Part shown: positions 20,122-28,691 of the stretch, one piece after another
How the letters are laid out: every line of letters begins with the position of its first letter
Numbering within the stretch: position 1 is the first letter of the stretch
Source: Candidatus Helarchaeota ASGARD archaeon Hel_GB_B
GTDB taxonomy: Archaea > Asgardarchaeota > Lokiarchaeia > Helarchaeales > HEL-GB-B
Length of the DNA stretch: 32,000 nucleotides
Direction of reading: 5' to 3'
NCBI GenBank assembly: GCA_005191425.1
Contig: SUPR01000032.1
Span: 1 to 32,000 of the forward strand
Made by a program: the position numbers and the translations under genes
The notes under the pieces: generated by a model
The model's input: the letters and a program-made list of their open reading frames with translations, nothing else
Databases searched by the model: none
What the model was told of the DNA's origin: nothing

Positions 20122-20979
20122 TTATTTTTGTTCGAAGCTATCAAAACCACCAAACCCACCACCCATTCCACCGAACTTAATACCTAATACTTTTTGGACA
20201 ATAAAGCTAAAACCAAAACTACTCGTTAAATAAAATCCAAAAAAGTACAACGCAAATCCTCTGGGTGAAACTGGGATTCCTTGAATAAACATACCTACAA
20301 TAGGGGCTTCCCACACATTAAAAGGAAAGAATCCTACTAATACCCCTGAAAAAAACCAATTAAGTATGAAAAACATAACCATAAAAGGGACCATTGTAAT
20401 TAATGTTGGTTTAAGGCGTTGCCACATCATTTTTCTTTGTATTTTTTCTATGTATTTTTGTTTTCTCTTAACCTTAATCATCAATTTTCTATTTTTTGTT
20501 TCTTTTGCCTCTTTTTCCATTTTTTTATGTTTGTCAATTTCCTTTTGATATCTTTTTAATCGGGGGATGTCCATCATAATTCTGGCAAGTCCACTAGTAC
20601 CAAAAACAATTCCAAAAGATAATAATAATATACACAAAGTATTAATAGGATTCACATTATATTCAATCCAAATTTCTGGCCATAATAACCAATGTAAAAG
20701 GGTATATGTAATTGTCCATAGTGATACCCATCCTAATACATAAGTCCCTAGTCCTTCCATGAAGACTTTTCCTTTACTCCCTAATTTTTCGTCTAACTTG
20801 AATATGTAAACCATTATTGCCCAATCAACAACTACCATCAACCAGCCAAACCCAACTCCCCATAACTGGGCATTTGGCAGACCATATAAAGCGTCTAATA
20901 TTGTAAGAATATGACATACTAAAACTGTCCTAACTGCAAGGAGAAATTTTGTATAATATACTTTATCTTTAATTTCCAT
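20122..20979 (-). CDS. Oxa1-superfamily insertase: N-terminal EMC6/RAB5IF(OPTI)-like 3-TM module fused to a DUF106 (EMC3/TMCO1/Get1-like) domain
   Basis: Residues ~110-270 are typical DUF106 (TM1, basic coiled coil, KP-TM2, PF, TM3-QKVLG). Residues 1-100 read KDKVYY...YIFKLDEKLGSKGKVFMEGLGTYVLGWVSLWTITYTLLH, resembling the EMC6/RAB5IF family. Confidence is higher for the DUF106 part than for the N-terminal assignment. Confidence 0.8.
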   Translation of the reverse strand: MEIKDKVYYTKFLLAVRTVLVCHILTILDALYGLPNAQLWGVGFGWLMVVVDWAIMVYIFKLDEKLGSKGKVFMEGLGTYVLGWVSLWTITYTLLHWLLWPEIWIEYNVNPINTLCILLLSFGIVFGTSGLARIMMDIPRLKRYQKEIDKHKKMEKEAKETKNRKLMIKVKRKQKYIEKIQRKMMWQRLKPTLITMVPFMVMFFILNWFFSGVLVGFFPFNVWEAPIVGMFIQGIPVSPRGFALYFFGFYLTSSFGFSFIVQKVLGIKFGGMGGGFGGFDSFEQK

Positions 20980-24798: not shown

Positions 24799-25671
24799 GT
24801 GGTAGATTCTAGCGTTGAAGTGTTGGAGATTAATGATGATGGGACTTCTACTGAAATTTCAATAACTGGTGCAATTAAAGACCATTTATCAAGCGATAAA
24901 GTAGTATTAATCATTAATGATAGAAAAAAAATAATATGGATTTGGAAAGGTGTAAATGCAAGAGTAAGAAAAAAGTTCATCGCGGCAAGACAAGCCCAAG
25001 AAATCAAAGGAAATAGGGGTTTAACTTATAAAATTGATAGTATTGAACACGGTGAAGAACCAAAAGAATTCATAAAACTGATTGGTGGTAAAATACCAAT
25101 GGAGGAAATATCTACTACAAAAGATGTTAATGAAATTATTGAAGAAAGTCAAATAATTAAACCAAAATATACTGATACAAGAAATTCAGCAGTTTCTGGT
25201 TTAAATAAACCCATAAATAAAGAAGAATTTTTCCAACCTGCGGCTCCAATAATTCGACAACATACTTCTTCTCCTACAGTTCAACAACCAATAAGTACGC
25301 AATCCACACAACCTTCAACTCCCTCACCAGTAATAAAACAAGACAGAACTGCCGAAGTTTTATCTGAGATAGAATCAATGCCTGTTCCAGAAGGATATAA
25401 ACGCGAATTGATTATTATTGGAAATGATGCATTTAGTCTTGTTGAAATAAAAAAATCTTTTATGGGAAAAGAAAAAATCGAATATAAACTAGATAAAACT
25501 GATACCCCTGATGGCGATTTTTTAGGTATAGATTACACACCAAGAACAATTGTCAGAAATGGTGAAATTATTGCCATAGAATTATTAAAATCACTTGAAA
25601 AACCTATAAGTAATCAATCTTCCCTTAATATGACCGTTAAGGCATTAAAAATTAAAATTTACAAACCATAG
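24799..25671 (+). CDS. Asgard-type single gelsolin-domain protein with a Pro/Ser/Thr/Gln linker and C-terminal domain (1DGelX-like)
   Basis: LSSDKVVLII...IWIWKGVNARVRKKFIAARQA...IEHGEEPKEF matches a gelsolin repeat; a low-complexity linker and a beta-rich domain follow. GTG start. Confidence 0.78.
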   Translation: MVDSSVEVLEINDDGTSTEISITGAIKDHLSSDKVVLIINDRKKIIWIWKGVNARVRKKFIAARQAQEIKGNRGLTYKIDSIEHGEEPKEFIKLIGGKIPMEEISTTKDVNEIIEESQIIKPKYTDTRNSAVSGLNKPINKEEFFQPAAPIIRQHTSSPTVQQPISTQSTQPSTPSPVIKQDRTAEVLSEIESMPVPEGYKRELIIIGNDAFSLVEIKKSFMGKEKIEYKLDKTDTPDGDFLGIDYTPRTIVRNGEIIAIELLKSLEKPISNQSSLNMTVKALKIKIYKP

Positions 25672-25693: not shown

Positions 25694-25882
25694 ATGTCTC
25701 AATGGATGGAATATGCAGAAAAAAAAGGAGATTATTTATGTGAACTAGCTGATGAACATATCAGGTGTAAAGAACCTGATAAAGCAAAAGATTTACTAGG
25801 TAAGGCTATTGGGTGGTACAAAAAAGCCGGATTAACCGATAAAATTGAAAAAGTTAAAAAAATTTTAAAAGAACTAAGTTAA
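25694..25882 (+). CDS. Small 62-aa protein, single TPR-like hairpin plus capping helix
   Basis: ATG with AGGT SD 22 nt after the gelsolin stop; GDYLCELADEHIRCKEPDKAKDLLGKAIGWYKKAG fits the TPR pattern; followed by a T-tract. Confidence 0.7.
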   Translation: MSQWMEYAEKKGDYLCELADEHIRCKEPDKAKDLLGKAIGWYKKAGLTDKIEKVKKILKELS

Positions 25883-26313: not shown

Positions 26314-27243
26314 ATGTCATTAACTGAAGATCAAATTCATACATTACAGAAATTATTGTCAAATCTTGAGAGTCATACTGAGTTAGAAGCAACAGCAGTT
26401 GTTACAATTGAAGGTATGCGAATTGCATGTGCTGTTTCTGGCGATCTAGATGCTGATGTATATTCGGCTGCCTCTGCAGCATTAGTTAATTTGGGGGAAA
26501 CTACTTTAAAACAATTAAATCATGGGTCACTTAAAGAAATAATTGTTCGTGGCGATGATGGATATACAATTTTGACCAGAGCTGGGGAATCATACATGGT
26601 CGTTGGGTCATGTAAAATTGGGTCTAGAATGGGTTATTATTTAGCATTATTACATAGATTTTGTAAGAAGGTTGAAAATATAGTTAAAGGCGAGGGTGTT
26701 TCTGCTCCTGCTCCTACCCCTGCCCCCACACCACAAATATCCCCACCTGTCCAGCAGCATGTAGTATCCAATCCTTCACCAACGCCTGAATATTCAGCTT
26801 CGCAACCAACAAATATTTTACCTTCGACATCTAAAGATAAAGCTGCAATTGAATCAGCTCTAGATGCTTTATCAATGTTAGAAGAAACTGAACCCCCTGA
26901 ATCTATTTCATCGCAACCTCCTGAACTTGCATCTGCCCCCTCTCAACCACTTATAGAAAATTTTGGTGATTCCACAGGTTTAGAAGATGCATTAAAGACT
27001 TTAGGGGCAGTTGAAGACCAATCTTCTGCTCCCAAAGTTGATATAAATACTGATGCATTAGTTGATGCTCTTCGACCTTCTACACCAGTAAAAGAGCCTG
27101 AACCTTCTTCTTCCCCGCCATTTGTCCCCTCACAGAGTGTATGTTCATCTTCTTCGTCAGATGATATTTTTAATATTTCTGATAAAGAAGCAGTACTAGA
27201 AGCACTAAAAGTATTGGGATGGGAAGAAGATGAGAATGAGTAA
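26314..27243 (+). CDS. Roadblock/LC7 (MglB/LAMTOR-like) protein with a long Pro/Ser/Glu-rich tail
   Basis: AVVTIEG..IA, SAASAALVNLGE, LKEIIVRGDDGYTIL (residues 1-~125), then ~185 low-complexity residues. Confidence 0.88.
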   Translation: MSLTEDQIHTLQKLLSNLESHTELEATAVVTIEGMRIACAVSGDLDADVYSAASAALVNLGETTLKQLNHGSLKEIIVRGDDGYTILTRAGESYMVVGSCKIGSRMGYYLALLHRFCKKVENIVKGEGVSAPAPTPAPTPQISPPVQQHVVSNPSPTPEYSASQPTNILPSTSKDKAAIESALDALSMLEETEPPESISSQPPELASAPSQPLIENFGDSTGLEDALKTLGAVEDQSSAPKVDINTDALVDALRPSTPVKEPEPSSSPPFVPSQSVCSSSSSDDIFNISDKEAVLEALKVLGWEEDENE

Positions 27244-27294: not shown

Positions 27295-28023
27295 TTAAAT
27301 TTCACCACTGGGCAAAACAATTAAACCTTTATCACTTATTTCAAAGGGATATCTCTTTAATGAATGAGAAGTACCTCTCATTTTTCTAACTAATATCGAG
27401 CGTCTTAGCTCTGCTGATTCCTCTCGCAAATCTAATTGAATAACTCCTTGTGTTATGAATTCTTCAATTCTGAAACGAGTATAATTATCTGGCCCGATCA
27501 TTTCACAAGTCATTAAAGAAGTACAATTAATTTCTCTTAATAAGGCACTTAACCTAAATATTGCAGCTCTTAAGGAGGATTCTCCCTCATATTGTACTTC
27601 AAGCCCGCTAATTGAATCAATTACTATCCTCTTAGCATTTAATTCTTTTGAGGCTCTATAAATCTCTTGAGCTAATGTATTAACATCAAATCCACGGTGT
27701 AATGCGTACTTTTCATTTGTTGGAAGTCCTGCTTTACTCGATGCTGCATCAACAATTGCAAATTTGTTTTCATTTTCTAATTTACGTAAATCCCAGCCAA
27801 AATTTAAAGCTTCTCTTCTTAATTCGTCAGGTCTTTCTTCTAATGTTACAAGAATTCCTGGCTCATTAAATTCTATTGCTCCCTTTACCAAAAATTCCAT
27901 TGAAAATATAGTTTTTCCGGTACCTGTACCCCCAGCAACTAAAATACAAGTACCTCTTAAAAGTCCGCCCCCTAATATTTCATCTAATCCATCAATTCCG
28001 CTGTTAATACGTTCAACTCCCAT
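27295..28023 (-). CDS. Single-domain KaiC/RAD55-family ATPase
   Basis: SGIDGLDEILGGG, Walker A GGTGTGKT, TLEE, RIVIDS, RKMRGT; GGTGA SD. Confidence 0.92.
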   Translation of the reverse strand: MGVERINSGIDGLDEILGGGLLRGTCILVAGGTGTGKTIFSMEFLVKGAIEFNEPGILVTLEERPDELRREALNFGWDLRKLENENKFAIVDAASSKAGLPTNEKYALHRGFDVNTLAQEIYRASKELNAKRIVIDSISGLEVQYEGESSLRAAIFRLSALLREINCTSLMTCEMIGPDNYTRFRIEEFITQGVIQLDLREESAELRRSILVRKMRGTSHSLKRYPFEISDKGLIVLPSGEI

Positions 28024-28038
28024 AATATCACCATATAA

Positions 28039-28509
28039 TTACAATGATTCTAAATTTAAAAATTCATCTCCTTTTAGAATTTCAAGTTCATCATATTCTA
28101 TTTTAATTATATCTGGATCTCTTTCTAAATTTTTTACTATCTTATTTAATTCTTCTTCGTTTTTTACCTTAATTAGTCCTATAATTGTTACTTTATCTTC
28201 TAAAATCCCAATGAAATTAAATTGTTCACTCAATTCTTTACCTAACATCCTTGCTTTTTTAATAGACGCATCAGCTATAATATGTCCACCAACCTTCAAT
28301 TTAATCATAAATGTACGGTTTTTTTCATAATCTTCAATGATAACCGTAAATTTTTTAATAATACCGCGTTCCTTCATCTTCTTAACATGAAAATGTAATG
28401 TTGTGTCTGGTATTCCTAATTGTTTGGCCAATTTAGTATAAGGAATTCTACTATCTTCTTTTAATCCTTTTAATATTTTCTTGTCTAATTCAGATAATGT
28501 ATATACCAT
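28039..28509 (-). CDS. Lrp/AsnC-family transcriptional regulator
   Basis: LSELDKKILKGLKEDSRIPYTKLAKQLG...GIIKKFT. ATG 28509 preferred; the ORF track starts at GTG 28518. Confidence 0.88.
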   Translation of the reverse strand: MVYTLSELDKKILKGLKEDSRIPYTKLAKQLGIPDTTLHFHVKKMKERGIIKKFTVIIEDYEKNRTFMIKLKVGGHIIADASIKKARMLGKELSEQFNFIGILEDKVTIIGLIKVKNEEELNKIVKNLERDPDIIKIEYDELEILKGDEFLNLESL

Positions 28510-28691
28510 CCAATTCACTGAAAACCTTTAGAAGATTAATTGAATGACTTTATTGATATTCCTATATTATAATATTTTATTTTAATCTTATTATTTTTTA
28601 TTAAAAAAATAATCAAAATAGATATTAAAAAAATAATGAATTTATTGAAATAATTTTTGGATATCTGTCATTTATTTTTATGAACATTCCA

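Follow-up and report, generated by a model that had tools for sequence, protein, structure and literature searches.

What does the disordered, acidic tail of an Asgard Roadblock protein do? The question is raised by one gene in the stretch of DNA analyzed here, 32,000 nucleotides from Candidatus Helarchaeota archaeon Hel_GB_B (assembly GCA_005191425.1, contig SUPR01000032.1, positions 1 to 32,000), hereafter the window. The window has about 28% G+C and is part of a 3.54-Mb Asgard genome of the order Helarchaeales. The gene encodes a Roadblock domain followed by a tail with four short amphipathic motifs, M1 to M4. Our analysis indicates that the tail very probably carries conserved docking helices on a tether. 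The best explanation of the whole, which we hold tentatively, may be that these helices dock onto part of the Roadblock module, with the cognate small GTPase as the likeliest partner. No description of a tailed Asgard Roadblock protein was found in the searchable literature. The gene and the parts of its product are located as follows.

26314..27243, + strand: the whole gene including the stop codon, encoding a 309-residue Roadblock protein with an acidic disordered tail (from the open reading frame (ORF) list and translation)

26314..26688, + strand: Roadblock/LC7 domain, residues 1-125, of MglB type with both the N- and the C-terminal helix present (from Pfam PF03259, PDB sequence matches and AlphaFold2)

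26689..26835, + strand: spacer 1, residues 126-174, rich in Pro, Ser, Thr and Gln, with the stretch PAPTPAPTP inside (column identity 0.41; predicted disordered)

26836..26886, + strand: M1, residues 175-191, an acidic amphipathic helix in register with M4 (D-K-x-A-h-x-x-A-L-x-x-L; AlphaFold2 helix 175-187)

26968..27018, + strand: M2, residues 219-235, an internal duplicate of the C-terminal motif including its L-G end (AlphaFold2 helix 222-228)

27052..27078, + strand: M3, residues 247-255, a truncated copy with Pro at its end (AlphaFold2 helix 246-252)

27163..27243, + strand: M4 element, residues 284-309 (AlphaFold2 helix 291-300; conservation)

The gene product is a pan-Asgard MglB-type Roadblock protein. 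Pfam Robl_LC7 (PF03259) matches residues 12-97 with 51.3 bits against a cut-off of 23 (1e-13), and the closest PDB sequence matches of the domain are 7f8m_A (2e-12) and 9jue_D (2e-10). The AlphaFold2 model of the window protein contains the alpha-beta-alpha sandwich expected for the superfamily, complete with its five strands, the central helix and the helices at both ends, at a predicted local distance difference test score (pLDDT) of about 80. The model of an ortholog from family f5 superimposes on Roadblock3 of MK-D1 (9jue_B) with a Z of 18.2 and on MglB (3t1s) with a Z of 18.0 and a root-mean-square deviation of 2.2 over 123 residues; the two superpositions span 117-123 residues. About 50 full-length orthologs were found in metagenome-assembled genomes of Helarchaeota and Promethearchaeota. 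Members of the superfamily dimerize via the central helix and the edge strand. The solved relatives of the domain are homodimers, and by analogy the domain should dimerize into a platform of the kind that contacts small GTPases. The structures closest to it in sequence and fold are the solved Asgard Roadblocks (Thorarchaeota 7F8M; MK-D1 7YH1, 9JQ8 and 9JUE; Tran et al., 2024, PMC10933270). Unlike the window protein, these have 94-131 residues and no tail, and PMC10933270 describes no tailed form.

The tail comprises residues 126-309 (184 residues). It is composed of 14% Pro, 22% Ser plus Thr and 17% Asp plus Glu, and has a net charge of -23. AlphaFold2, run on an alignment of 40 sequences, predicted exactly four helices in the tail, one for each motif. 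The spacers are largely disordered, many segments having a pLDDT below 50; in spacer 1 these are residues 128-140, 160-164 and 167-169. The twelve 11-residue windows of the tail with the highest helical hydrophobic moment all lie within the four motifs or immediately ahead of M4. The motifs are also more frequent than composition predicts. The pattern D..[AG][LIV]..AL occurs three times in the tail against 0.0016 expected from 20,000 tail shuffles, and [LIVMF]..AL..[LP] three times against 0.05. The copies are unequal, M3 being truncated and M4 extended. M4 consists of an acidic-Phe lead-in, an amphipathic helix, a Gly-Trp cap and an acidic C-terminus. First delimited as residues 290-306 (27181-27231), it in fact extends over about 25 residues (284-309). 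The PAPTPAPTP stretch corresponds to a period-6 DNA repeat at 26702-26723. No DNA-level repeats were found between the motif copies, so the motif duplications are old rather than recent.

An earlier sequence-only reading of this DNA had described a Roadblock domain, a PAPTPAPTP tail and four amphipathic motifs. This description was borne out, with the motifs at exactly the coordinates it gave. It had also named folding of the motifs into an ordinary domain as an outcome that would refute it; the model instead shows four isolated short helices in a disordered tail. Short helical motifs, conserved and repeated along a disordered tail that is joined to a Roadblock domain, make up the anatomy of a multivalent docking scaffold.

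No part of the tail is more amphipathic than the motifs, and eukaryotic Ragulator is anchored to the membrane via LAMTOR1 (PMC10933270), so helices anchoring the Roadblock platform to the cell membrane were considered, a target that the sequence-only reading had listed as well. Several properties argue against it. The four helices are all net acidic (-4, -4, -1 and -7 for M1 to M4; the M4 element is 35% Asp plus Glu) in a tail that is itself strongly acidic. They have no basic or aromatic-rich interfacial face save for one Trp. Position-specific invariance such as that of G-W and A-L-x-x-L would be expected of a protein contact more than of lipid binding. We regard membrane anchoring as very unlikely.

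Conservation distinguishes the motifs from their surroundings. It was measured as mean column identity in an alignment of 40 full-length orthologs, the figure for M4 referring to the extended element at residues 284-305. The identity is 0.84 in the Roadblock domain, 0.44 in M1, 0.69 in M2, 0.77 in M3 and 0.96 in M4, and 0.41-0.48 in the spacers. The invariant positions of the tail are concentrated in M2, M3 and M4. M4 is present in all 40 orthologs, with 15 invariant positions within F286-W303. M2 is likewise present in 40 of 40, and its L223, A226 and L227 are invariant. A strict regular expression found M3 in 38 of 40, and the remaining two have Val at its first position, one conservative change; L249 and A252 are invariant, L253 and P255 at least 90% conserved. 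M1 is present in 26 of 40, including all seven orthologs of the window's own subclade, and is thus conserved in just a part of Helarchaeales. The contrast between conserved motifs and divergent spacers that the sequence-only reading had proposed as a check thus holds for M2, M3 and M4, which are far above the spacers, but only partly for M1.

The spacers vary from 20 to 42 residues between M2 and M3 and from 41 to 74 between M3 and M4, and appear to evolve freely in both length and sequence. This drift, together with the fact that no partner has been identified, would suit a tail that has no partner at all and acts as an acidic entropic bristle or solubility tail with incidental helices. The conservation of M4 is hard to reconcile with such a tail. 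M4 is no less conserved than the folded domain of the protein (0.96 compared to 0.84) and persists across Asgard classes whose linkers cannot be aligned, which requires purifying selection on specific residues. A partnerless tail is therefore very unlikely.

The ancestry of the motif was traced by searching 301 Asgard genomes and reading the hits. The arrangement, in which a Roadblock domain is followed by an acidic or Pro-rich linker that cannot be aligned and then by a C-terminal helix, extends well beyond Helarchaeales. The C-terminal motif is homologous in orthologs of six other Asgard families (at least seven families in all; proteins of 190-390 residues). A single C-terminal copy is found in the 190-250-residue orthologs of families f5/f23, f14, f10, f17 and f21, where f10 and f17 are Freyarchaeota and Baldrarchaeia by their source names. 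The Lokiarchaeales orthologs (318-387 residues) have two copies, one of them internal and the other C-terminal, alongside further short motifs that are conserved, and the Helarchaeales orthologs have three or four copies. The consensus across families is D/E-K/R-x-A-h-h-x-A-L-K/R-x-L-G-aromatic-acidic; its two Leu never vary, and its Ala and Gly are conserved to 90% or more. AlphaFold2 predicted a 219-residue f5 ortholog with a domain pLDDT above 90, a linker below 50 and a C-terminal helix at residues 191-210 of about 80.

Judged from the sequences, M2 is a clear duplicate of M4 and M3 a truncated one, and M1 was aligned by MAFFT to the internal copy of the Lokiarchaeales orthologs. The four copies thus represent a Helarchaeales-specific multiplication of one old C-terminal helix, and M4 is the ancestral motif of the family. 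Because other Asgard classes have just one such helix, the core function of the tail does not lie in multivalency. The multivalent adaptor proposed by the sequence-only reading is consequently upheld in its conserved, repeated helical motifs on a disordered tail, while its multi-copy layout turns out to be an elaboration of Helarchaeales.

In a tree of the domain, the tailed forms and related tail-less forms (124-147 residues) make up one clade with a support of 99/97. Four further Roadblock paralogs of this genome were included in the tree, and three of them lie outside the clade. The fourth (C19:39931-40269) falls inside it and groups with tail-less forms of f15 and f29. The backbone of the tree is unresolved and gave no signal for a single origin of the tail versus several losses.

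Some tails carry further elements. The motif of the f10 and f21 orthologs (L032-L034, L037-L038) ends in Gly-Leu, not in Gly-Trp or Gly-Phe, and after it the protein runs on for about 20 basic residues to a conserved E-K/R-I/V at the C-terminus. The Lokiarchaeales tails (L039-L044, for example L040:8962-9936) contain a strongly conserved acidic, Pro-rich element, V-Y-D-D-E-h-P-P-h-P-L, followed by Y-T-P-M-E, and a further N-I-V-S-I-P element. The extra motifs of these tails suggest several different partners.

The motif is private to this protein family. Among the 22,233 six-frame ORFs of the genome, a hidden Markov model (HMM) of the motif matched this one only. A profile of the last 42 residues, searched against 1.84 billion representative proteins, retrieved 27 clusters, of which 25 are this family or fragments of it; the other two are mTERF-repeat proteins matched by chance on a short stretch. 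The genome HMM and C-terminal profile searches ruled out a docking motif shared with other proteins. A private motif leads us to expect a contact within a dedicated Roadblock module, not a docking site for a hub receptor. The docking anatomy implied in the repeated binding partner of the sequence-only reading is retained, and a shared hub receptor is disfavored.

The sequence-only reading had placed the motifs in an adaptor that recruits a partner other than a GTPase to the Roadblock/GTPase module. Candidate partners are actin, a gelsolin-type neighbor, a 62-residue helical neighbor, a KaiC-like ATPase and the MIT domain of Vps4. The motif searches bear on this adaptor too, as motifs that dock onto hub domains are normally found in many proteins, unlike this one. 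Pro-rich spacers, amphipathic helices and an acidic Trp end are reminiscent, in their general style, of eukaryotic cytoskeletal regulators, which offers a lead for the adaptor and no more. When the tails of six orthologs were compared with Pfam at E-values up to 10, no WH2, DAD, UBA or other family was found, in a search whose filters drop weak matches, and this also speaks against an adaptor of this kind. The second element that defines such modules is LKK-T/V in WH2 and helices 2-3 in UBA. No copy of the motif is followed by LKK-T/V, and the protein ends six residues past Gly-Trp.

The MIT-interacting motif 1 (MIM1) of ESCRT-III proteins, whose likeness the sequence-only reading had noticed, was rejected as an identity. 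Both are C-terminal amphipathic helices with Leu at i, i+3/4 and i+7 and acidic residues before them, so the leucine spacing stands as a resemblance. The MIM1 consensus (D/E)xxLxxRLxxL(K/R) is not matched, since in all four copies the Arg is replaced by Ala or some other residue. Where MIM1 has its terminal basic residue, M2 and M4 finish with Gly and M3 with Pro. The motif also differs in its Gly-aromatic-acidic end and in its host, which is a Roadblock and not a Snf7-family protein. The two Snf7-family proteins of the genome have basic, MIM1-like C-terminal helices unlike the motif and are not matched by its HMM; this difference from the genome's own ESCRT-III C-termini counts against the adaptor as well. 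The tail of ribosomal stalk P1 was compared as well. The aP1 of this genome ends differently, and at its very C-terminus.

What the helices contact was approached by comparison with known systems. MglB with its C-terminal helix (Ct-helix; PDB 6IZW; Baranwal et al., 2019) is the closest precedent, and the best documented one, for a Roadblock domain with a linker and an acidic C-terminal helix. In Myxococcus xanthus, the Ct-helix lies past 16 disordered residues beyond the domain and binds a pocket of MglA away from the active site, adding exchange-factor activity to the GTPase-activating activity of MglB (PMC6785124). It is rich in Asp and Glu and contacts Lys and Arg residues of helix alpha5 of MglA, and genes for MglA and for MglB with the Ct-helix are typically coupled (PMC6785124). 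The tailed protein shares with MglB the full Roadblock fold (Z 16.5-18 to MglB structures) and a disordered linker followed by a short, conserved, family-specific, Asp/Glu-rich C-terminal helix. The helices at 291-300 in the window protein and at 191-210 in the f5 ortholog both follow linkers with a pLDDT below 50. Unlike MglB, it has an invariant Gly-aromatic cap, and in Lokiarchaeia two to four copies of the helix.

Based on these comparisons, we propose the following arrangement. The folded Roadblock domain would form a dimeric platform from which the flexible, strongly acidic tail hangs. The C-terminal helix of about 20-25 residues, with its Gly-aromatic cap and the acidic residues after it, was duplicated inward in Helarchaeales to give M1 to M4. 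The helices would serve as docking elements that fold upon binding, and the long spacers as tethers. Each helix would insert its Leu/Val face and aromatic cap into a hydrophobic, positively charged groove. A target within the Roadblock module is favored because the motif is private to this protein family, and the first candidate is the cognate small GTPase, bound as MglA is by the MglB Ct-helix. Extra copies could increase avidity and capture radius, or allow several partner molecules per dimer. In family f18, tail-less members of the same clade directly adjoin a gene for a 184-residue Ras/Rab-like GTPase, which ties this Roadblock clade to GTPases in the usual way. Should a GTPase prove to be the partner, the archaeal relatives of eukaryotes would share the allosteric Ct-helix mechanism known from bacterial MglB.

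A small GTPase as the target is a possibility that we put forward with clear reservation, and a number of observations weigh against it. No small GTPase ORF adjoins the tailed gene in the window or in 27 other distinct loci, and the nearest one to any tailed member is about 7 kb away, in Lokiarchaeales. MglB differs on this point, and a contact with a GTPase is a proposal here. The linker is 60-270 residues long compared to 16 in MglB. The tail helices of the window protein itself reach a pLDDT of only 50-68. No form fused to a GTPase was found among proteins of 542-2000 residues, although this is weak evidence. The genome encodes at least 43 Ras-superfamily and about 12 Rag-like GTPases, so that no cognate can be named. 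Turning to the smallest genomes did not narrow the choice, since about 16 GTPases and 9-10 Roadblock genes are present even in 1.4 Mb.

Other GTPase genes are of interest in their own right. C93:17619-18587 (L076:6617-7582, minus strand) encodes a 321-residue Rab/Ras-like GTPase (Ras Pfam, 1e-56) that also has a zinc ribbon and, C-terminally, a helical segment of TPR-like type. Its identity to the f18 GTPase found beside the tail-less relatives is 54-55%, which makes it the closest homologue of that protein. Some of the genome's GTPases are fused to Roadblock domains: C83:23505-24437 and C129:20026-20937 are single ORFs of 327-328 residues in which a Ras-family GTPase domain comes directly after a Roadblock-like match.

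The main rival to a GTPase target keeps the partner within the same module. The tail helices could bind Roadblock or longin dimers, either their own or paralogous ones, and act as a built-in scaffold like LAMTOR1 or the dynein intermediate chain. The outcome would be autoinhibition, the formation of head-to-tail chains, or several Roadblock dimers gathered on one platform. There are known cases of Roadblock dimers that attach to stretches of disordered chains. Two Roadblock heterodimers are joined by LAMTOR1 (PMC10933270), and an LC7 homodimer has its binding site on the dynein intermediate chain, which is disordered (PMC9771362). LAMTOR1 (p18) and the dynein intermediate chain resemble the tail as largely disordered chains whose short segments bind Roadblock dimers in a multivalent scaffold. 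They differ in being separate chains, whereas the tail is fused to its Roadblock domain, and there is no sequence similarity.

The family-private motif fits this rival, as it fits any partner within the module. The genome contains at least ten further Roadblock-like ORFs, and the unusual conservation of the domain (0.84) suggests several constrained surfaces. The confidence of the C-terminal helix in the monomer model of the f5 ortholog also speaks for it. Opposed to these points, none of the PDB matches reached into the tail helix, the helices share their acidity with the domain (net -3), and the single helix of most lineages cannot scaffold several dimers. We consider binding to Roadblock dimers doubtful. 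If the partner is another Roadblock dimer, scaffolding of the Ragulator type would have a candidate precursor in this tail. A bolder version combines both targets. The tail might be a built-in Ragulator-type scaffold in which each helix clamps a separate Roadblock/longin dimer or small GTPase to assemble a multi-subunit GTPase platform. This is improbable, but if true, the protein would be an archaeal forerunner of the LAMTOR1-organized Ragulator with the scaffold still fused to a Roadblock subunit, its clamps increased from one to four in Helarchaeales.

Asgard archaea encode dozens of small GTPases and Roadblock/longin proteins, and almost nothing is known of the wiring between them. A short, nearly invariant docking helix that occurs in seven or more Asgard families, is restricted to one Roadblock family and has multiplied in a single order provides a concrete handle. 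A 25-residue peptide could be used to fish out the partner in cultured Lokiarchaeia or in silico. The tail also offers a clean natural example of a short linear motif duplicated within a disordered region while the spacers drift.

The adaptor to a partner other than a GTPase draws support from the neighborhood of the gene. The relevant neighbors in the window are as follows.

24799-25671, + strand: gelsolin-like protein of 290 residues (sub-threshold gelsolin repeat, E 0.003, 17.8 bits against a cut-off of 21)

25694..25882, + strand: basic helical (HAT/TPR-like) protein of 62 residues, isoelectric point (pI) 8.5 (upstream neighbor in 8/8 Helarchaeales loci)

27295..28023, - strand: KaiC/RadA-like single-domain ATPase (Pfam KaiC 4.9e-76; convergent, with 51 bp between the stop codons)

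28039..28518, - strand: Lrp/AsnC-type regulator, upstream of the KaiC-like gene (Pfam HTH_24 and HTH_AsnC; 8/8 Helarchaeales loci)

All eight Helarchaeales loci share one gene order: the 62-residue helical gene, sometimes an Orc1/Cdc6-like ATPase gene, the Roadblock gene, the convergent KaiC-like ATPase gene and the Lrp regulator. The gelsolin-like gene lies upstream of the 62-residue gene, two genes from the Roadblock gene, in four of the eight; in others, a leucine-rich repeat (LRR) protein gene takes its place. This recurrent setting makes the neighbors natural candidates for an adapted partner, and the basic 62-residue protein could complement the acidic helices. None of them accompanies the tailed Roadblock gene outside Helarchaeales, though the motif is conserved there. 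The KaiC-like ATPase occupies this position in none of the other classes. The 62-residue family is single-copy, extends to four other Asgard families and is present in 93 of the 301 genomes (Helarchaeales, Lokiarchaeales, f14 and f21), but adjoins the Roadblock gene in Helarchaeales only; elsewhere it lies beside unrelated genes for chorismate synthase, radical SAM and LRR proteins. In Lokiarchaeales, the neighbor of the tailed gene encodes a dNK-like kinase. No neighbor is conserved across classes, and the neighborhood is thus no guide to the partner. An adaptor to a non-GTPase partner is unlikely on this evidence, and its cytoskeletal version is possible but without specific support. Docking within the Roadblock module, with the cognate small GTPase as the first candidate, explains the private motif better.

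Several further features of the neighborhood were observed. The gelsolin-like protein continues after its repeat with a long linker of Pro, Ser, Thr and Gln and a C-terminal domain without a Pfam match. In most other loci, the KaiC-like/Lrp pair is directly followed by an insertase-like gene (20122-20979 in the window) and a gene for a protein of 670-680 residues. In the window these two genes are on the other side of the Roadblock gene, indicating that the block has been rearranged.

In four families, a divergent Orc1/Cdc6-like AAA ATPase (353-389 residues) is encoded on the opposite strand, either directly beside the tailed Roadblock gene or separated from it by one small ORF (L025:10269-11438, L029:7610-8707, L035:8123-9184 and L037:10081-11190, also L051 and L053). 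It has only AAA_16/AAA_22 matches in Pfam and 2qby_A (2e-7) as its best PDB match, and is not the adjoining gene in the genome of the window. Genes for RadA, endonuclease dU and a DEAD/DUF5814 helicase also recur nearby, as does a JAB/MPN gene in three families.

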